A stretch of 27,202 nucleotides of DNA from a virus (lineage: Duplodnaviria > Heunggongvirae > Uroviricota > Caudoviricetes): the IMG/VR virus record IMGVR_UViG_2541047882_000005; one strand, given 5' to 3'. Positions 20 to 27,202 of this stretch are shown in pieces; position 1 is the stretch's first letter; each line of letters opens with the position of its first letter. The notes under the pieces were generated by a model. That model was not told the origin of the DNA. It saw nothing but the letters and a program-made list of their open reading frames with translations, and did not search any database. The position numbers and the translations under genes are program-made.

Positions 20-1315
20 TTAATTTTTCATTGCTTCGTTATGGGGCATGGTTGGGGCAAACTCGCTTAACTGTGTATTTAACAAAGCTACCTGTGCATT
101 ATTGTTTTCAGACATCCATTTTCCGTATACCTGAAATACCATTTGCGCATCTGCATGGCCCATCTGGTTTGCTATAAATGCCGGGTTAGCACCAGCTGTC
201 AGCGACCAGCAGGCATAAGTATGTCTCGACTGATATGATTTTCGATGGCGGAGTCCGGCACGTTTTATCGCTGCGTCCCACATCTGCCTTATTGAGTCAA
301 CGGTAAAATGGTCACCATAATTTTTTACTCTCGCTGACACTTCAGGTTGAAAAACAAAGGTGCATTTTTGTTTTTCTGTTCTGCCATACTCTCTGAGGTG
401 AACATCAATGATATGCTCTTTGCTCAGTCTCGTTAATGTCATCTGACTCCGGAGAGCGTCGATTGCTGGCTTAATAAGATGAATGACCCGATTGGTTCCC
501 GCCTGTGTTTTTGGTACCGTGAAACGGTCTTTTGCTAAATTTCTCCTGATCATCATTGTTCCATTTTTCAGATCTATGTCCTCCCATCCAAGTGCACACA
601 GCTCACCAGGGCGAACTCCAGTATAAACAGAAACACACCATAAATTTTTTGCTTGCTGATTTCTGCACGCATCGATAAGACGGATAAATTCTTCCCGCGA
701 AAGAGGATCCGGAATGGTTCTTGATTCCTTTAATGGCGAGATCCCCTTAAACGGATTATCTGCCAGGTAACCGTTATCAACACCAAACTGGAACACGGCG
801 TTAAGATTTGTCATGTAATTATTTACAGTTACAGCCGATCTCCCTGGTTGTGTAACAATATAGTTACTTTTGGGGATCTGGTATCCAGTCAGTAACTCTT
901 TACGAACCTCCAGTAATTTTTCTTTATTAATCGATGAGGCAAGATTTTTTTCACCGATTATGCTCAGGATATTTTTGATGACGGCACGGTATGTGTTGAG
1001 TGATGTTTTGGCGACTTCAGTTTCTTTCAGTGCCAGAAATTTTTCAGCCAGTTCTTTTATGGTTAAATCTTGTCGGGCCTCACCAAATTTTTCCAGATTG
1101 CGTGAGGAGGGAAACTGTTTTGCATAGTCGAAAACACCAGTTTTTATTGCGTAACAAACAGAGGAGCGTAGTTCACCTGCAACGCGCCTGTTTTTTGCTG
1201 TGTCAGGAACCCCCAGATTTTCCCTGACTCTTACGTCTTTATAAACAAACCAGATACGTAATTTCCCTCCATGGTTTTCCACGCCTGTCGGATATTTCAT
1301 TTCAACTTCTCTCAT
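20..1315 (-). CDS. int: Phage tyrosine integrase (lambda/Rac-type site-specific recombinase)
   Basis: 431-aa ORF; C-terminal region carries integrase-like motifs (..SRHTYACW.., ..MGHADAQMVFQVYGKW.. with candidate catalytic Tyr); sits at the prophage end followed by an excisionase-like ORF. True start may be the internal Met at 1300. Confidence 0.85.
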   Translation of the reverse strand: MREVEMKYPTGVENHGGKLRIWFVYKDVRVRENLGVPDTAKNRRVAGELRSSVCYAIKTGVFDYAKQFPSSRNLEKFGEARQDLTIKELAEKFLALKETEVAKTSLNTYRAVIKNILSIIGEKNLASSINKEKLLEVRKELLTGYQIPKSNYIVTQPGRSAVTVNNYMTNLNAVFQFGVDNGYLADNPFKGISPLKESRTIPDPLSREEFIRLIDACRNQQAKNLWCVSVYTGVRPGELCALGWEDIDLKNGTMMIRRNLAKDRFTVPKTQAGTNRVIHLIKPAIDALRSQMTLTRLSKEHIIDVHLREYGRTEKQKCTFVFQPEVSARVKNYGDHFTVDSIRQMWDAAIKRAGLRHRKSYQSRHTYACWSLTAGANPAFIANQMGHADAQMVFQVYGKWMSENNNAQVALLNTQLSEFAPTMPHNEAMKN

Positions 1316-1334: not shown

Positions 1335-1586
1335 TCAAGTAAGATGACGTCTTGGTCTCGCTGATGCCTGGCGCTCAATCCAGCGATCAATTTCTTCCAG
1401 GTTGTAAAAGCATGGACTGTTATCCCATGGCATACCGTCATGAGCGACATGCTTATATTCCCTTCCTTCCATAAACGATTTTTCCCGGGCCTTTTTTAAC
1501 GTACCTTTTTTTATTCCTTTCAGCGCAATTAACTGCTCTTCGGATACCCATTTGCCGGGAGAGACAATCATGATTACTTCGCTCAT
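1335..1586 (-). CDS. Excisionase-like small DNA-binding protein
   Basis: 83-aa ORF immediately upstream of int on the same strand, the classical xis position; basic C-terminus. Assignment is positional, not by motif. Confidence 0.5.
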   Translation of the reverse strand: MSEVIMIVSPGKWVSEEQLIALKGIKKGTLKKAREKSFMEGREYKHVAHDGMPWDNSPCFYNLEEIDRWIERQASARPRRHLT

Positions 1587-1658: not shown

Positions 1659-3557
1659 TTAAGAATCAGCCTGACTCGGGATCAGTTTTTGCCAGATAAC
1701 TGAAACGTATTTTGCCTGGTAACGGGCGTCATCAAGTGCATTATGGCGCTCACCTTCGAATGGAATAGCCGTTCTGGCATCGAAGTCTATGGCTTTCCCC
1801 AGCTCAACGATTGTGCGTACATCGCGATCGTTGTAGTAACGCCACGGGCAGGGGATCCCCTGCCGTTCGTATGAACGGCGCAAAATCGTGTTGTCGAAGT
1901 TGGCTCCATTTCCCCAAACCTGAACAAAAAATTCACCGGAGTTTTCGTCGATAAATTCTCGCAATTGTAACAGTGCATCATCTAACGGGATTTCATCGGT
2001 CATAATGGCAGATTGCGCTTCGCGTGATTGCTTAAGCCACCATTTAATGGTGTCCCGATCAATGACTCCGCCAGCAGTTTCCAGATCGATAGTCTTACTA
2101 AATTCCGGTCCCATATCTCCGGTTTGCGGATCGAAAAATATTGCACCTATTGAGATGATCGGGGCATCAGGATTTTTTCCCATGGTTTCAAGGTCGATCA
2201 TTAGATGGTCACACGTCCTGCTGGTGGATGTGATTTCGTGATGACCGTTCACCTTAATTGGGTGATCTGCCGTCTCGCCAGTTTCATTATCGCTATTGTG
2301 ATGCTGATTGCCGCCAGTGTTCTCCTTGTGTGGATGTTCAGCGCCTTCCATTTCCTCCGGATCATCTTCCTGAACTTCAACCTGATACTCTTCATCGAAT
2401 GTTTCTTGGTATGTTGCGTCGCCCATCACCGCGCCACAATCAGGGCAGTTGCCGCCGCCGGTCTGACCGCAGGCGGTGCAGACTTTTTCCACTTCCTGTT
2501 GCGCTACTGGTTCAGGCTGTTTCGTTTCTGGCTCGTTTTGTAACGCATTTGGACTGTTTTGTTCCGCTTTTTGGTAGTTCCGTTCCGATTCATGCTGGTT
2601 CTGGTTCACAGAATCGCGGGTCTGGAGCCCCTTAACCCATTTCGGATCATTCGGGTCACTAATCCCTTCAACAAATTCACCACGTGATGCAGCAAGCAAC
2701 TTATCGGCGTCAGGCTGGCTGATATTGGCTGCCTGCATAATTTTGTTTACTTCGTCAGCGGTAACTTTTATCGGCTCTGGTTGTTCTGAATCTTCAGCGG
2801 TATCTACATTTTGCGGTAAGCCCGTGTATGTGCCATTTTTTCGGGCAAAATATTCTTCTTTTGTGATTTCAGTGGCGCCAGCAGCCAGTGCCTTATCCAG
2901 ACCAGAGAGTTTGTTTGCGCGACCGTATTTTTCTCCGTCCTTATCTGCGAAGAGGAAATAGAACGGCCCCTCACGCTCTACAGATGGTTCAGCTTCCGGC
3001 GCGGTTTCATTTTTTGGGATATCAGATACCTCAGTTTCCACTGCATCAGTTTGTGTTTCTGATGACTGGAGAACATCAACAGTGCCCAGGTCTGTTTCTT
3101 CATTCTCAAACACGCCCTTTGTCGTCAGGTATTCGCAGATATATTTGTTCAGTGCTACGGGATCTTTGTGAATGTCGATCGGACGCTCACGGACAAGGCC
3201 AAAAATAGTTTGGCGGTCGTAGCGAAGGGCATCAGGCTGTTTGCGCATTGGTGCCGAGATACGCTTCCAGTCTTCGCGGTCGTTGTCGATAACTTCTTTT
3301 TTTGCCCAGCGATGGATGCTGCCGTCAATGTTTCCGGCATCCACATCACTAGGCCAGAGAGCGTAGGCCAGTTCGTCATCCAGTGTTTTCCATGTCTGCT
3401 TGTATTCGCGATGAATGGCAGCAATGACCGGGCTGATTTTTCCTGTTGAATTTTCAGTGTACTGTTGATTGGCTCTGGCGCGGGCGAGATCAACAACAGA
3501 CGTGTATTTTCCGGTTTCCTTGCGTTCACCTTCGCGACGTTTTTTCCAGATGCGCAT
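1659..3557 (-). CDS. RecE-like exonuclease with C-terminal DnaQ-type DEDDh 3'-5' exonuclease domain
   Basis: Central region matches the RecE (exonuclease VIII) acidic/zinc-finger segment as I recall it (..LLAASRGEFVEGISDPNDPKWVKG.., ..CTACGQTGGGNCPDCGAVMGDATYQETFDEE..); C-terminus shows DEDDh motifs (MIDLETMG, GNGANFD, HNALDDARYQ). The listed ORF extends to 3692 but that start is TTG; first in-frame ATG is 3557. Confidence 0.8.
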   Translation of the reverse strand: MRIWKKRREGERKETGKYTSVVDLARARANQQYTENSTGKISPVIAAIHREYKQTWKTLDDELAYALWPSDVDAGNIDGSIHRWAKKEVIDNDREDWKRISAPMRKQPDALRYDRQTIFGLVRERPIDIHKDPVALNKYICEYLTTKGVFENEETDLGTVDVLQSSETQTDAVETEVSDIPKNETAPEAEPSVEREGPFYFLFADKDGEKYGRANKLSGLDKALAAGATEITKEEYFARKNGTYTGLPQNVDTAEDSEQPEPIKVTADEVNKIMQAANISQPDADKLLAASRGEFVEGISDPNDPKWVKGLQTRDSVNQNQHESERNYQKAEQNSPNALQNEPETKQPEPVAQQEVEKVCTACGQTGGGNCPDCGAVMGDATYQETFDEEYQVEVQEDDPEEMEGAEHPHKENTGGNQHHNSDNETGETADHPIKVNGHHEITSTSRTCDHLMIDLETMGKNPDAPIISIGAIFFDPQTGDMGPEFSKTIDLETAGGVIDRDTIKWWLKQSREAQSAIMTDEIPLDDALLQLREFIDENSGEFFVQVWGNGANFDNTILRRSYERQGIPCPWRYYNDRDVRTIVELGKAIDFDARTAIPFEGERHNALDDARYQAKYVSVIWQKLIPSQADS

Positions 3558-3615
3558 CTCTGCCTGAATTTCGGGCCATTTAGCACCAGGAATACATTTA
3601 TGCTTAACCCACCCA

Positions 3616-3882
3616 ATGGCGTGCAACTTAAGCTCCGGATACGGGTTATTCCCCTCTGAACAGGCGCGTAAGGACTGGCAAAACGCCCGCAAAAAACTCT
3701 CGAGGGCAAAGGTGAAGAAACCTGCTGTGGTTGATCCGGACCTTATCTGGTCATCACCTGACGGAGAAATACGTCGCTACGACAGTCGCCTAAACATAAT
3801 CTGTCGCGAGTGCCGGAAGAGTGAAGTTATGCAGCGCATACTGGCTTTCTATCAGGGTAATTTTCAGGACGTGGCGCAGTGA
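3616..3882 (+). CDS. Hypothetical small protein (alternative GTG start at 3715 with GAGGG SD-like sequence)
   Basis: 88-aa ORF divergent from the exonuclease; ends 4 bp into the next ORF (GTGA overlap). No recognisable motifs beyond CxxC..CxxC-like spacing (CRECRK). Confidence 0.3.
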   Translation: MACNLSSGYGLFPSEQARKDWQNARKKLSRAKVKKPAVVDPDLIWSSPDGEIRRYDSRLNIICRECRKSEVMQRILAFYQGNFQDVAQ

Positions 3883-4235
3883 GTGCACCGGCAACCATTC
3901 TTGATATGTGCTGTGGCAGCCGCATGTTCTGGTTCGATAAGTCTGACGAACGGGCGATATTCAGCGATATCAGAAAAGAAGGATACACATTACGCAATGG
4001 GAGACGCTTGATTATCAGCCCTGACATTATCGCAGATTTTCGTGCATTATCATTTGCAGACGCATCTTTTTCGATGGTTGTATTAGACCCTCCGCATCTT
4101 GAGAGTGTTGGTGATAACGCCTGGATGGGAAAGAAATATGGACGGCTGAATAAAGATGCCTGGCGTGATGATTCGCGACAGAGATTTAAAGAAGCCTTTC
4201 GGGTGTTGAGGCCGCACGGCGTTCTGATTTTTTAA
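3879..4235 (+). pseudogene. SAM-dependent methyltransferase, probably C-terminally truncated
   Basis: Motif I-like LDMCCGS and motif IV-like VVLDPPH in gamma-class order; ORF stops after ..LRPHGVLIF, shorter than any complete class I methyltransferase fold. Confidence 0.45.
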
Positions 4236-5567: not shown

Positions 5568-5901
5568 ATACAGCGAACTCCATTGGTTTAGTTGGATATT
5601 TACTGTGCTGGACAAAAACGGTTTGCGGGGAAATCTTAGTTAAGTAGAATGACTGCGGGTGCTTGAGGCTATCTGCCTCGGGCATGGACACCAACGGCAG
5701 ATAGAGAAAAGCCCCAGTTAACATTACGCGTCCTGCAAGACGCTTAACATTAATCTGAGGCCAATTTCATGCTAGACACATGTAGGTTAGCCTCTTACGT
5801 GCCGAAAGGCACGGAGAAGCAGGCTATTGTTAACACCAAGCTGTAATGTCCCCTTTGAACCATTCTAAAATGTCCCCAGACAATTCTCTGGGGGATTTTT
5901 C

Positions 5902-7215
5902 ATGATCAAAGAGACTGTTACGATGAGTCATAAGGAACTCCACCGACTTCAGACTATTCAGGAACAAGCTGCGGCACGCATTGGCATTTCTATTCGGCAG
6001 GTTAAACGTCTGGTGCAACGGTATAGAAATGAAGGGCCTTCTGGTCTGGTTTCCCACCGACGTGGAAAGCGTCCTAATAATTCCTTTTCTACTGAATTCA
6101 GAGCAACAGTAATTTCACTCCTCAAAGGCCGTTACGCTGATTTTGGACCTACGTTTGCGTGCGAAAAATTGCGCGAGATACACGGTTTATCTTTATCCGT
6201 TGAAACTCTCAGAAAGTGGATGATAGAAGAGGGGTTATGGCGTGAACGCCGTCGTAAAATTGCCCGTATATATCAACGCCGCATGCGACGACCATCTTAC
6301 GGTGAACTGATCCAGATTGATGGCTCACCTCATGACTGGTTTGAAAATCGAGGCCCCAGATGTACACTGATCGTTTTCATTGATGATGCCACCAGTGCGT
6401 TGATGGCGTTGCGTTTTGTGCCTGCTGAAACAACCCGGGCTTACATGGAAACCCTCCGGGGTTACCTTAATGATCATGGCGTACCGCTCGCTCTCTACTC
6501 TGATAGACACAGTATATTCAGGGTAAATAACCCAGAGCGGGAAGGTGAGCTGACCCAGTTCACTCGTGCGATAAAGACACTGGGCATCGAGCCAATCCAT
6601 GCCAACAGCCCGCAGGCAAAAGGGCGGGTAGAGCGCGCCAATCAGACACTACAGGACAGGCTGGTCAAAGAAATGCGGCTTCAGAATATCAGTGATATTG
6701 AAACAGCAAATGCATGGTTGCCGACCTTTATTGAAGCCTATAACAACCGGTTCGCTACGTCGCCTCGTACTACTGATAATGCTCATCTTGATGTGCACCA
6801 TTCTGAAGAGGAACTGGGTTATATCTTCAGCCTACAGGCGAAGCGCGTTCTGTCTAAAAATCTCACTTTCCAGTACAAAAGCAGTGCGTTTCAGGTACGC
6901 AGTGAGGGCCGGGGATATCGACTTAGGCATTCGGTTGTTACTGTATGCGAGAACTTTGACGGTGAAATTAACGTTCTGTATGACGGGAAAGCGCTGGGCT
7001 GGGAAAAGTATGTTGATGGCCCGGAGCCTATACCACTGGATGATGAAAAGAGTGTCCATGAACGAGTGGATAATGCCCGTATTGATTTACGCTCAAAATA
7101 CTATGTTAAACCTAAAGCTGACCATCCCTGGCTTACGCGCCGAACGCAAAGTCATCAGCAAGTTAAGCCCCCGAAGTTACCTAAAAAGAAGCCTGATCCC
7201 GATAAAAAAGATTGA
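5902..7215 (+). CDS. DDE transposase with N-terminal HTH and integrase-core (rve) domain, IS481/ISNCY-like
   Basis: 437 aa; HTH-like GISIRQVKRLVQRY; catalytic-core motifs IQIDGSPHDW, FIDDATS, and SPQAKGRVERANQTLQ (the D,D-35-E region); GGGGA SD upstream of ATG. Confidence 0.85.
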   Translation: MIKETVTMSHKELHRLQTIQEQAAARIGISIRQVKRLVQRYRNEGPSGLVSHRRGKRPNNSFSTEFRATVISLLKGRYADFGPTFACEKLREIHGLSLSVETLRKWMIEEGLWRERRRKIARIYQRRMRRPSYGELIQIDGSPHDWFENRGPRCTLIVFIDDATSALMALRFVPAETTRAYMETLRGYLNDHGVPLALYSDRHSIFRVNNPEREGELTQFTRAIKTLGIEPIHANSPQAKGRVERANQTLQDRLVKEMRLQNISDIETANAWLPTFIEAYNNRFATSPRTTDNAHLDVHHSEEELGYIFSLQAKRVLSKNLTFQYKSSAFQVRSEGRGYRLRHSVVTVCENFDGEINVLYDGKALGWEKYVDGPEPIPLDDEKSVHERVDNARIDLRSKYYVKPKADHPWLTRRTQSHQQVKPPKLPKKKPDPDKKD

Positions 7216-12534: not shown

Positions 12535-12834
12535 AAAAATTCCTTAATACTGATAACTTGGCGCACTATACACACGTTCCTGAAGAAAGCTATAGTTTTT
12601 TGATGGGGTTGAAGATGGCTGGATGTCTAAAATAAACATTGCTTCATATGTTCAACTATGCGTTAATGATTGCGTCGGTTTGAAGAACAGACGATATACG
12701 AAGTAGTTTACTAAAGCAGTTCTCATTTCAGGTGTTATTCACTTATTCCTTCTTTGAGTCTCTCCAATTAAGTACGAAGTCGTTTCTGTTATGCAAACCA
12801 TTTATGCCGAAAGGCTCAAGTTAAGGAATGTAGA

Positions 12835-13050
12835 ATGTCAAATAAAATGACTGGTTTAGTAAAATGGTTTAACGCTGATAAAGGTTTCGGCTTTATTTCT
12901 CCTGTTGATGGTAGTAAAGATGTGTTTGTGCATTTTTCTGCGATTCAGAATGATAATTATCGAACCTTATTTGAAGGTCAAAAGGTTACCTTCTCTATAG
13001 AGAGTGGTGCTAAAGGTCCTGCAGCAGCAAATGTCATCATTACTGATTAA
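12835..13050 (+). CDS. cspB: Cold-shock protein CspB
   Basis: 71 aa, [38 protein letters not shown]..; long 5' UTR typical of cold-shock genes. Confidence 0.9.
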
Positions 13051-13331
13051 AATTCATCGCTCGTCTGTATACGATAACGAAGAAGGCTGATGCCTGAGTA
13101 GAGATACGGACAGAGTAGTGAATATTGGATCTCTTTAATAAAAAGTAAGGAGGTCCAATACATGAAACAATGGCTAGCATATTTGGCAAAATCTTAATCA
13201 GGAAAAGTATGCTAACCATTGTGGTGAAGTGCAGGTTTGCTGCATGAATAGTTTTACAGCAGAAGCTAACTGCTGGCATGGCAAAACAAAGTGCGTAAGT
13301 GGATGACTCCCACAAAAAGCACCACAATCTC

Positions 13332-15359: not shown

Positions 15360-15721
15360 GGTAATATTAAATCGGAACATTTACATCGCGGAATGTAAAA
15401 TTTAAATAAAAAGGACTCTTCCATGAGCCAAAATTCCTGAAATCTTAAGGGTAAGATAAAAGGTCTTAATCAGAATGACACGTTTTATTAATAAATAAAG
15501 CTATTCTTTCATTGCTGTGTTTTTCTTTACAAAAGTAATCCTTGCTATGGGTGGTTAATCATGCGTTAATGGTGTTCTGGTTTGTTACAAATTTATCTGA
15601 AGCAGTCATTGTTATAATTTTATTATTTGTACCTCTTGAGATTTCCTTGTTGGTTTTTCTCTCTGATATTTTTTTTCGGACCATTCTGCCCAAGGGCTAA
15701 TTTCTTCAAAAGGTAATAATT

Positions 15722-15934
15722 ATGTCTAACAAAATGACTGGTTTAGTGAAATGGTTTAACCCTGAAAAAGGTTTTGGTTTCATCACGCCGAAAGATGGCA
15801 GCAAAGATGTGTTTGTCCATTTCTCAGCAATTCAGAGCAACGATTTCAAAACATTAACTGAGAATCAGGAAGTTGAATTTGGTATTGAGAACGGACCTAA
15901 AGGTCCTGCCGCTGTTCATGTAGTGGCGCTTTGA
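15722..15934 (+). CDS. cspI: Cold-shock protein CspI
   Basis: 70 aa, [45 protein letters not shown].. Confidence 0.9.
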
Positions 15935-16022
15935 GGTAGACAATATTACAAACCATATTCACTTTAGATGCCCGTGTTGTCATGGTTCCCAGTATAGAAC
16001 ATCATCTTTTGATGTTTCTGAC

Positions 16023-23320: not shown

Positions 23321-23895
23321 TGGCATTCAGAATGAGTGAACAACCACGGACCATAAAAATTTATAATCTGCTGGCCGGAACTAATGAATTTATTGGTGAA
23401 GGTGACGCATATATTCCGCCTCATACAGGTCTGCCAGCAAACAGTACCGATATTGCACCGCCAGATATTCCGGCAGGCTTCGTGGCTGTTTTCAACAGTG
23501 ATGAGGCATCGTGGCATCTCGTTGAAGATCATCGGGGTAAAACGGTTTATGACGTGGCTTCCGGCGACGCGTTATTTATTTCTGAACTCGGTCCGTTACC
23601 GGAAAATGTTACCTGGTTATCGCCGGGAGGGGAATATCAGAAGTGGAACGGCACAGCCTGGGTGAAGGATACGGAAGCAGAAAAACTGTTCCGGATCCGG
23701 GAGGCGGAAGAAACAAAAAACAGCCTGATGCAGATAGCCAGTGAGCATATAGCGCCGCTTCAGGATGCTGTGGATCTGGAGATCGCAACGGAGGAAGAAA
23801 CCTTGTTGCTGGAAGCCTGGAAAAAGTATCGGGTGTTGCTGAACCGTGTTGATACATCAACTGCACCGGATATTGAATGGCCAGCACTGCCGTAG
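23320..23895 (+). CDS. tfa: Tail fibre assembly protein Tfa
   Basis: 191 aa, [54 protein letters not shown].., matches lambda Tfa; start overlaps stf stop. Confidence 0.85.
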
Positions 23896-25918: not shown

Positions 25919-27202
25919 ATGGATTTCCAGTTATATTCGCTCGGCGCAGCGTTAGTGTTTCATGAAATATTTTTTCCTGAATCATCAACGGCAATGGCGT
26001 TAATTCTGGCAATGGGAACCTACGGTGCAGGTTATGTGGCGCGTATTGTCGGAGCATTTATTTTCGGCAAAATGGGCGACAGAATAGGGCGTAAAAAAGT
26101 GCTCTTTATTACCATCACCATGATGGGGATCTGTACCACCTTAATTGGTGTGTTACCGACCTATGCACAGATTGGTGTTTTTGCACCCATCTTGCTGGTG
26201 ACGTTGCGTATTATTCAGGGGTTGGGTGCAGGTGCGGAAATTTCCGGTGCCGGTACGATGCTGGCGGAATATGCGCCAAAAGGTAAGCGCGGAATTATCT
26301 CCTCATTTGTGGCTATGGGAACTAACTGCGGAACCTTGAGCGCAACGGCAATCTGGGCCTTTATGTTCTTCATTCTCAGTAAAGAGGAACTGCTGGCGTG
26401 GGGATGGCGTATACCGTTCCTGGCGAGTGTTGTCGTGATGGTCTTTGCTATCTGGTTGCGTATGAATCTGAAAGAAAGCCCGGTCTTTGAGAAGGTTAAC
26501 GACAGTAACCAACCGACAGCAAAACCTGCACCTGCTGGTAGCATGTTCCAGAGCAAATCCTTCTGGCTGGCAACAGGGCTGCGTTTTGGTCAGGCGGGTA
26601 ACTCCGGGTTAATTCAGACTTTCCTTGCAGGCTATTTAGTGCAGACGTTATTGTTTAACAAAGCAATTCCAACAGATGCATTGATGATCAGTTCGATTCT
26701 CGGCTTTATGACCATTCCGTTCCTTGGTTGGTTATCCGATAAAATTGGTCGCCGGATCCCGTATATTATTATGAATACCTCCGCGATTGTGCTGGCATGG
26801 CCAATGCTTTCTATCATTGTAGATAAAAGCTATGCCCCGAGCACCATTATGGTTGCACTGATTGTGATTCATAACTGTGCGGTGCTGGGATTATTTGCTC
26901 TGGAAAACATTACCATGGCAGAAATGTTCGGCTGTAAAAACCGCTTTACCCGGATGGCTATTTCTAAAGAAATTGGTGGTCTTATCGCTTCCGGTTTTGG
27001 TCCTATCCTGGCGGGTATTTTCTGCACCATGACGGAATCCTGGTATCCGATCGCCATTATGATCATGGCATATTCAGTGATTGGTTTAATCTCTGCGCTG
27101 AAAATGCCAGAGGTGAAAGACCGTGATTTAAGTGCGCTGGAAGACGCTGCGGAAGATCAACCGCGTGTTGTAAGAGCTGCGCAACCTTCCAGAAGTCTGT
27201 AA
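25919..27202 (+). CDS. ydfJ: MFS (metabolite:H+ symporter family) transporter, 5'-truncated by the prophage
   Basis: 427-aa ORF with 10-12 TM helices and MFS signature GKMGDRIGRKK; by comparison with MHS family members the ORF begins inside TM1 (starts at ..DFQLYSLGAALVF), with an in-frame stop 9 nt upstream. Confidence 0.85.
   Translation: MDFQLYSLGAALVFHEIFFPESSTAMALILAMGTYGAGYVARIVGAFIFGKMGDRIGRKKVLFITITMMGICTTLIGVLPTYAQIGVFAPILLVTLRIIQGLGAGAEISGAGTMLAEYAPKGKRGIISSFVAMGTNCGTLSATAIWAFMFFILSKEELLAWGWRIPFLASVVVMVFAIWLRMNLKESPVFEKVNDSNQPTAKPAPAGSMFQSKSFWLATGLRFGQAGNSGLIQTFLAGYLVQTLLFNKAIPTDALMISSILGFMTIPFLGWLSDKIGRRIPYIIMNTSAIVLAWPMLSIIVDKSYAPSTIMVALIVIHNCAVLGLFALENITMAEMFGCKNRFTRMAISKEIGGLIASGFGPILAGIFCTMTESWYPIAIMIMAYSVIGLISALKMPEVKDRDLSALEDAAEDQPRVVRAAQPSRSL

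Follow-up and report, generated by a model that had tools for sequence, protein, structure and literature searches.

A 5'-truncated YdfE-type exonuclease gene with a RecE-like middle and a DEDDh head in a decayed Qin-type prophage

Described relatives and the make-up of the parent protein

RecE (exonuclease VIII) of the Rac prophage carries an Exonuc_VIII N-terminus (PF06630) and a C-terminal PD-(D/E)XK nuclease of 5'-3' polarity (PF12684), with recT as the next gene. We analysed a window of 27,202 nucleotides (the whole stretch of IMG/VR record IMGVR_UViG_2541047882_000005 considered here), in which an open reading frame (ORF) shares with RecE a homologous centre including a Cys4 motif, an operon position before xis-int and a similar size, but has none of those three features. 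The intact parent gene of this ORF is found in the live phages PhiR42_1, HannyBb, Tritos, mEp460_ev081 and Evi (84-100% identity), and the window copy lies, as in PhiR42_1, Tritos, HannyBb and mEp460_ev081, directly upstream of xis-int with no annealing protein. The parent is an 823-aa modular protein built from YdfE_N at the N-terminus, an acidic middle that is related to RecE and bears the Cys4 motif (YdfE_C) and, C-terminally, a DEDDh head of the DexA/Rv2179c type. This exonuclease family is ordinary and already catalogued: it has its own Pfam domains (YdfE_N and YdfE_C), a PHROG (2082) and NCBI names, and a survey of recombination modules in lambdoid phages published in 2025 (PMC12315714) includes in its Table 1 a functional type, 'Tritos', that is nuclease-only and Chi-rich, so that the novelty implied by the first-pass annotation does not stand. 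The largest protein cluster of the family holds 23,183 member sequences. Members are abundant in E. coli (thousands of sequences, EHEC prophages included) and are often mislabelled 'exodeoxyribonuclease VIII'. The literature searched yielded no biochemical or genetic study of a YdfE-type exonuclease and nothing specific on Rv2179c in phages, on PF16473, on ydfE in Qin or on RecE with DEDDh; a paper on Gifsy-1 RtcR, considered as a link of a prophage 'exonuclease VIII' to RNA signalling, proved irrelevant.

In E. coli K-12 the same gene is the Qin pseudogene ydfE (b1577), situated at the same chromosomal prophage locus by rspB; the left-end feature of the window (20-1300, minus strand) adjoins rspB in near-identical genomes. 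Residues 1-256 of K-12 ydfE are identical to the PhiR42_1 protein, and the gene is cut by IS2 (IS2E). This truncation has left K-12 with a 5' fragment, whereas a deletion has left the window with the complementary 3' fragment, and the two copies were inactivated independently. A stand-alone DnaQ-like exonuclease of mEpX2, also in an early-left operon, is 58% identical to the C-terminal domain of the window protein, but it is a 182-aa protein without the RecE/YdfE scaffold and belongs to a full module of Rad52-like annealing protein, SSB, exonuclease and Abc2. T4 DexA (8KEL/8KEN), the best structural match, shares its Pfam family and DEDDh catalytic residues with the window domain; it differs in being a stand-alone protein of 227 aa with ~22-28% identity, and the residues through which it reportedly tetramerises and recognises 5hmC are not conserved in the window protein.

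The RecE-like middle and the C-terminal DEDDh domain

The window ORF (1659-3692, minus strand) runs for 677 uninterrupted codons. Alignment to PhiR42_1 identified positions 1659-3641 (minus strand) as the native remnant, corresponding to codons 164-823 plus the stop of the 823-aa gene (YdfE family, PHROG 2082). Over these 1,983 nucleotides a single mismatch separates the window from the PhiR42_1 gene (99.95% nucleotide identity), a nonsynonymous Ser-to-Pro change private to the window copy. The PHROG 2082 profile was covered at positions 156-822 of 823, the match beginning only at 156. By identity and by the exo-xis-int order at the prophage left end the window copy is of the YdfE type; starting at parent codon 164, it does not have the full three-part architecture of ~823 aa and is a fragment of a member.

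The central acidic region (2250-3347, minus strand; ~21% Asp+Glu) overlaps Pfam YdfE_C and is homologous to RecE 278-592. In BLASTP, ORF residues 116-481 matched K-12 RecE 278-592 with 39% identity over 366 aa (E = 2e-61), and DNA identity was 78% over exonuclease residues 475-623 (RecE residues 455-589). The Cys4 motif CTACGQTGGGNCPDCG (CxxC-x7-CxxC; 2433-2480, minus strand), a putative zinc ribbon common to RecE, aligns with RecE CNACGQTGGDNCPDCG, and four of four cysteines are invariant in the family alignment. The resemblance to RecE that had been claimed for the acidic and Cys4 segment is thus borne out. The central region gave a partial match to NCBIfam PRK09709 (profile 271-600), and against the RecE model NF007259 the window protein scored 281.8 bits versus an equivalog cut-off of 1269, with only profile positions 271-600 of 877 matched. 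The scan that found PF12684/DUF3799, the PD-(D/E)XK domain, in K-12 RecE found it in neither the window ORF nor its full-length relative. PF06630 was not found in the 823-aa parent, where YdfE_N stands instead, and in the window the N-terminus is deleted. The chimeric layout proposed by the first-pass annotation, a RecE-like middle joined to a DEDDh exonuclease where RecE has its PD-(D/E)XK nuclease, is correct. An AlphaFold2 model of the full-length 823 aa, built on a shallow alignment of 12 sequences sharing at least 88% identity, had a small element at residues 386-437 as its sole confident part and was left out of fold searching because its mean pLDDT was 37.

The 3'-5' exonuclease domain of DEDDh type (Pfam Rv2179c-like, T4 DexA-like) lies at 1692-2207 on the minus strand (ORF residues 496-667, 172 residues). 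It matched PF16473, the Pfam family of Rv2179c-like 3'-5' exonucleases, along the full length of the domain: the alignment took in profile positions 2-177 of 177, and the score was 226.8 bits (E = 1.9e-67), the gathering cut-off being 27 bits. The Exo I (DxE), Exo II (D) and Exo III (Hx4D) residues are all present: D500 (2193-2195) and E502 (2187-2189) in MIDLETMG, D600 (1893-1895) in GNGANFD, and H650 (1743-1745) and D655 (1728-1730) in HNALDDA, all on the minus strand. Across 53 homologues (38-53% identical), the first four of these residues are invariant and D655 is nearly so. The AlphaFold2 model of the C-terminal domain (pLDDT 93.4, pTM 0.89) has an RNase H-like DEDD fold, for which Foldseek ranked T4 DexA (8KEL/8KEN) first, followed by RNase T and Orn (E = 5e-12 to 1e-6). 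Motifs, profile search and structure prediction therefore all uphold the earlier assignment of the C-terminus to the DEDDh exonucleases. The head would act by two-metal-ion hydrolysis via its D-E-D-H-D residues and, judging from family membership, would remove nucleotides from 3' ends (3'-5' polarity).

The substrate of the head could be RNA, because its best Pfam family takes its name from an RNase, Rv2179c of M. tuberculosis; the domain would then be a similar 3'-5' exoribonuclease acting on primers, sRNAs such as DicF, or tRNA. The PGAP product name agrees with such a role, RNase T and oligoribonucleases rank among the strong structural matches, and DEDDh enzymes often take both RNA and DNA. 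We nevertheless consider an RNA substrate unlikely, given that the closest solved structure and sequence match is a DNA exonuclease, T4 DexA, that the mEpX2 homologue sits inside a DNA recombination module (Rad52-like-SSB-exo-Abc2), and that the same scaffolds otherwise bear the DNA nuclease of RecE. The match to DexA, the closest solved structure and a member of the same Pfam family, is also what favours a reading of the family, and possibly of the remnant, as an exclusion nuclease of the HREX kind, that is, a bacterial or prophage DexA homologue degrading 5hmC-modified T-even DNA. There is a precedent in EcD, an E. coli DexA homologue reported to protect against T4 (PMC12153337), and prophage genes near int often have moron or exclusion functions. 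The chances of this reading appear slimmer still. Two DexA residues that are reportedly required to recognise 5hmC and cleave 5hmC-DNA (PMC12153337), W152 and D169, align to Tyr and Thr here in a weakly aligned stretch (the D169 part is of modest reliability), while the stand-alone mEpX2 homologue keeps W and D at these positions. The EcD termini, as given by the cloning primers (MIDTET... and ...TIPETYD), are unlike those of the window protein, which indicates that EcD belongs to another subfamily; the PADLOC match was weak and generic for DEDDh enzymes (E = 1.8e-5); and the fusion to a RecE scaffold, together with the swap with the RecE nuclease, points to the phage's own DNA-end metabolism.

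The deletion junction and the state of the window copy

We mapped a deletion junction to the base by three-way alignment, at an imperfect 10-bp microhomology, GTAnCCGGAG (3633-3642), where 4,620 bp (4.62 kb) are absent from the window relative to PhiR42_1. On the exonuclease side, the PhiR42_1 map records the loss of exo codons 1-163, ydfD, ydfC/ydfB-family genes and small hypothetical ORFs, in the place that dicB has in K-12 and other relatives; further on, cI/dicA, cro/dicC, cII and O are lost, and a DUF977 gene has lost its 5' end. The remnant is left without the 163 5' codons (most of YdfE_N), start codon, ribosome-binding site, promoter and upstream operon of its parent. An illegitimate deletion at the microhomology accounts for the loss of these codons and of the translation start, and the same event took the whole immunity/early-promoter region (early-left promoter) and the replication genes. 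The junction was found in 91 of 5,426 complete E. coli genomes.

The deletion fused codon 164 of the parent gene to sequence of the DUF977 gene in antisense orientation. The 3' remnant of this DUF977 (LygF) gene (3631-3882, plus strand; PGAP annotation), whose intact PhiR42_1 homologue matched Pfam DUF977, abuts the exonuclease remnant head to head. The first 17 codons of the ORF, including the TTG (3642-3692, minus strand), are thus a non-native extension, antisense to the DUF977 remnant and outside the exonuclease gene. The start had been described as ambiguous between TTG at 3692 and ATG at 3557, but since the TTG lies in antisense DUF977 and the ATG is the internal Met192 of the 823-aa parent, the native start codon is missing, not ambiguous; the apparent choice is an artefact produced by the deletion.

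Very probably, the window feature is a dead relic of the one gene in the 'recombination slot' of a Qin/Tritos-type lambdoid prophage, and what remains of the gene is most likely untranscribed and non-functional. PGAP treats the same sequence as a pseudogene ('missing N-terminus') in the near-identical genomes NCTC9040 and TB06053, and a promoter scan upstream of the ORF returned chance-level matches only, with nothing promoter-like above that. The host element is a heavily decayed Qin-type prophage with at least a dozen pseudogenes, the exonuclease remnant among them. PGAP lists truncated genes for portal, protease, gpG, J, tail fibre, transposase and others, and dicA, dicB and dicC (by annotation) and dicF (by Rfam) are absent from the window. 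Decay of the retained exonuclease codons seems barely to have begun, all 660 being free of frameshift or stop. Because they are intact and one nonsynonymous change from the live phage, translation from an internal or fortuitous start could still occur; that the truncated ORF is expressed from a fortuitous start with its nuclease activity retained is a much weaker variant of the family-level suggestion made below.

The first-pass annotation had taken the 677-aa ORF for a functional orphan exonuclease gene, and an intact, expressed enzyme of this kind would replace RecE/RecT as the recombination function of the element. Such a view draws on the long unbroken ORF with its complete catalytic domain, on the retention of the allele in 91 complete genomes and on the 642-663-aa 'partial exonuclease' proteins deposited by gene callers. 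We regard it as very improbable, however, because the ORF opens with 17 codons of antisense DUF977 and its junction falls inside the parent gene, at codon 164, the N-terminal domain having been deleted together with the immunity region and the promoter region native to the gene. The chance-level promoter scan, the PGAP pseudogene call and the broadly defective host prophage argue in the same direction, and the intactness of the ORF is no evidence of selection because only one nucleotide separates it from the live-phage gene. What had been read as a working gene is a 5'-truncated, promoter-less remnant in a decayed prophage, and annotation should record the ORF as a pseudogene belonging to a defective Qin prophage and should not present it as a new recombinase.

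Annealing partner and the role of the intact family

The excisionase gene (1335-1586, minus strand) follows the exonuclease remnant directly, with no recT between them. By tblastn, the 27-kb window held no homologue of RecT, Red-beta, Rad52-like proteins, SSB, Gam, Abc2, NinB or lambda Exo, and P22-type Erf, Sak4 and Gp2.5 were absent from it by PGAP and PHROG annotation; the check also drew on the PGAP annotation of a record differing by 8 nt and on a PHROG scan of unnamed ORFs. Nor did scans against Pfam, NCBIfam and PHROG support an annealing domain hidden in the scaffold. The absence of an annealing partner, noted in the first-pass annotation, thus holds for the window and extends to all intact relatives examined. 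Homologues of RecT, Bet, Rad52-like proteins, SSB, Gam and Abc2 were found in none of 80 IMG/VR loci. Four annotated phages have the order exo-xis-int, preceded by dicB-ydfD or by ydfD alone, and five more long DEDDh variants, drawn from other clusters at 50% identity, likewise run straight into xis/int. The PD-(D/E)XK variants of Rac, POCJ13 and P0169 are followed by recT, and in this small sample the head type corresponded without exception to whether recT was present.

In the intact phages, the exonuclease is the last early-left gene before xis-int and the only recombination-type gene, with annealing protein, SSB and anti-RecBCD gene all lacking. The intact enzyme is most likely a DNA-end-processing accessory in phages that would rely on the host RecBCD-Chi-RecA pathway, not on an annealing protein of their own, a role proposed from the place of the gene, the swapping of domains and a single correlative survey. 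Chi octamers occur 7 times in the window, versus 0.9 expected by chance; this density is about the E. coli chromosomal average and could reflect amelioration rather than phage strategy.

Three kinds of head were seen, namely PD-(D/E)XK with recT downstream, DEDDh without recT, and C-termini without a recognisable nuclease. At the family level, we tentatively suggest, as a possibility that is itself doubtful, that the 'function-unknown' N-terminal two-thirds of RecE and the YdfE scaffold may be a shared delivery platform with interchangeable heads, the DEDDh version of which would provide an annealing-protein-independent activity of reversed polarity. If this is true, candidate jobs of the DEDDh-headed version are the trimming of 3' tails for loading of host RecBCD on phage ends, or the exclusion of competing phages. 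The correlation between head type and recT may offer an experimental handle on the role of the large non-catalytic region of RecE and on how 'nuclease-only', Chi-rich lambdoid phages recombine.

Domain architecture of the reading frame

The 677-codon reading frame at 1659-3692(-) is present as the first-pass annotation described it. A Pfam search of its translation assigned residues 496-667 to PF16473 (Rv2179c-like 3'-5' exonuclease; E = 1.9e-67), covering the profile whole, and the three DEDDh motifs read there by eye proved real, corresponding to D500/E502, D600, and H650/D655, all invariant or nearly so among 53 homologues (38-53% identity). AlphaFold2 modeled the last 193 residues with a pLDDT of 93.4, and the best solved neighbors of this model were T4 DexA (8KEL/8KEN, E = 5e-12), itself matched by PF16473, followed by RNase T and oligoribonucleases. 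The claimed RecE-like center was also recovered, with 39% identity to K-12 RecE over 366 residues (BLASTP, E = 2e-61) and near-identical surroundings of the Cys4 motif (CxxC-x7-CxxC). However, RecE has an Exonuc_VIII N-terminal and a PD-(D/E)XK C-terminal domain, neither of which was matched in the frame, and the NCBIfam RecE equivalog model aligned residues 100-477 with profile positions 271-600 of 877 only, scoring 282 bits vs a cut-off of 1269. The domain matches, motif conservation, and structural neighbors bear out the observation at the level of domains; the nuclease would be expected to show 3'-5' polarity, with DNA as its likely substrate. In the otherwise poor full-length AlphaFold2 model, the sole confidently modeled part of the RecE/YdfE-like scaffold was residues 386-437 (window about 2380-2535, -; pLDDT 80-85), a small beta-hairpin/helix (GPFYFLFADKDGEKYGRANKLSGLDKALAAGATEITKEEYFARKNG) without counterpart in RecE.

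A truncated gene in a defective prophage

The frame had been taken for a complete gene, which was not borne out. Its residues 10-676 matched positions 156-822 of the 823-position PHROG 2082 profile, and about 155 N-terminal residues are therefore missing. The window is a piece of an E. coli chromosome. Among close E. coli genomes, TB06053 differs from the window by 8 nt and NCTC9040 is near-identical across the first 19.8 kb; PGAP annotation of these genomes calls an exonuclease pseudogene (1659-3650, -) adjoining a DUF977 pseudogene (3631-3882, +). When aligned three ways with live phage PhiR42_1, the window showed a deletion junction at 3633-3642, at an imperfect microhomology (GTAnCCGGAG). 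On the downstream side, the window matches codons 164-823 of the 823-aa phage gene, 1 nt in 1,983 being different; upstream, it is antisense of the DUF977 (LygF) gene. That sole difference, at window 3251 (CCA Pro vs TCA Ser; Ser294 to Pro), is private to the window, as PhiR42_1, NCTC9040, and TB06053 all carry TCA. The supposed ambiguity between two start codons dissolves because the junction puts TTG at 3692 in foreign antisense sequence and ATG at 3557 inside the parent gene, as Met192. No promoter-like site above chance was seen upstream of the frame, and the remnant is probably not expressed.

Relative to PhiR42_1, 4,620 bp are absent, comprising exonuclease codons 1-163, ydfD, ydfC/ydfB-family genes, small hypothetical ORFs (in the place of dicB in K-12 and other relatives), cI/dicA, cro/dicC, cII, O, and the start of the DUF977 gene (5' end). 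Among complete E. coli genomes, 91 of 5,426 carried the junction allele. In K-12 MG1655, the locus was inactivated independently: its ydfE pseudogene, interrupted by IS2E, retains residues 1-256 of the 823-aa protein.

The window spans an entire defective Qin-type prophage from int (20-1300) to a disrupted ydfJ (25919-27202), with truncated portal, protease, gpG, J, tail-fiber, and transposase genes and intact relBE, hokD, csp, and lysis genes. Ordinary Qin features include the IS009 sRNA inside tfaQ (23663-23861, +) and two cspA-type thermoregulator leaders upstream of cspB and cspI (12674-13066 and 15576-15961, +). A full-length sok antitoxin RNA (Rfam, 104 bits; 5657-5828, +), with no intact hok-type ORF beside it, abuts a 437-codon ISNCY-type transposase ORF (5902-7215, +; incomplete according to PGAP), and probably represents what remains of a hok/sok locus after disruption by the IS. 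At 3879-4235(+), a 118-aa "class I SAM-dependent methyltransferase" covered just positions 52-165 of the 229 in a PHROG DNA-methyltransferase profile; as PhiR42_1 has the same short form, the gene may be naturally short or degenerate.

Recombination partners and Chi sites

The reported lack of a neighboring single-strand annealing gene held: none is annotated in the window, a PHROG scan of its unnamed ORFs yielded none, and tblastn with RecT (two versions), Red-beta, a Rad52-like protein, SSB, Gam, Abc2, NinB, and lambda Exo found no match there. Homologues of the queried recombination proteins were likewise absent from 80 IMG/VR loci of at least 89% identity. In all intact annotated relatives, xis-int immediately follows the gene, ydfD (in most with dicB) precedes it, and there is no annealing protein. 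The window contains seven Chi octamers (GCTGGTGG) vs 0.9 expected from shuffles, a density roughly equal to the host chromosomal average. Five are on the late-gene strand (2220, 4534, 10126, 10183, and 14750, +) and two on the other (10716 and 10768, -); one falls inside the exonuclease remnant. This count is consistent with the Chi-rich lambdoid class without anti-RecBCD genes in a survey of 314 lambdoid phages (PMC12315714, Genome Res 2025), which reported DnaQ-like 3'-5' nucleases in Rec modules, "RecE-2" proteins lacking a nuclease domain, and a functional type, "Tritos", that has a nuclease and abundant Chi sites but lacks an annealing protein, SSB, and any anti-RecBCD gene. Its authors proposed that a phage lacking anti-RecBCD functions makes use of Chi and the RecBCD of its host. 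Phage Tritos carries the same protein at 99% identity.

The intact family and its nuclease heads

The intact 823-aa protein is encoded by phages PhiR42_1, HannyBb, Tritos, mEp460_ev081, Evi, and those of the PPompW series and is also represented in a cluster of 23,183 protein sequences; precomputed Pfam hits already name its parts (YdfE_N, PF27430; YdfE_C, PF27432; Rv2179c-like). Of 1.84 billion representative proteins searched, 11,756 proved to be relatives, mostly stand-alone domains of ~180 aa, with some long fusions. The latter are combinatorially shuffled, joining an Exonuc_VIII N-terminus to a DEDDh head (P0122, P0131, P0132, P0134, P0144, P0155), or YdfE_N/YdfE_C to a PD-(D/E)XK head (P0169) or to C-termini of about 250-340 aa without a recognized nuclease (P0140, P0203). 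The latter two may be "RecE-2" proteins (PMC12315714); P0203 is flanked by a Gam-like gene and by Sipho_Gp157 and DUF3268. RecE/YdfE scaffolds with such interchangeable C-terminal heads are seen at loci L095 (768-4354), L093, L096, L097, L101, L102, L098, and L099. In this small sample, head type tracked the partner gene perfectly: the five DEDDh variants with retrieved contigs (all but P0144) ran directly into xis/int, never followed by recT, and the PD-(D/E)XK forms (Rac, POCJ13, P0169) were followed by recT. The Exonuc_VIII-DEDDh variants (L093/L096/L101/L102) share a gene for a ~112-aa Rrf2-family protein as their immediate upstream neighbor, whereas the Qin/Tritos type has YdfD (DUF1482) in that place.

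In mEpX2, a stand-alone homologue (58% identical) lies inside a Rad52-like-SSB-exo-Abc2 module, which connects the domain with DNA recombination in phages. The family could serve instead as an anti-phage exclusion nuclease like EcD, an E. coli DexA homologue reported to exclude T4 by cutting 5hmC-DNA (PMC12153337), but this reading is unsupported: in the alignment, Tyr and Thr occupy the two positions implicated in recognizing 5hmC, the EcD termini (from cloning primers) differ from those of the present protein, and PADLOC returned a weak generic DEDDh match only. Any physiological role of the family is inferred. The domains were read correctly, but in a pseudogene whose family had been catalogued before.
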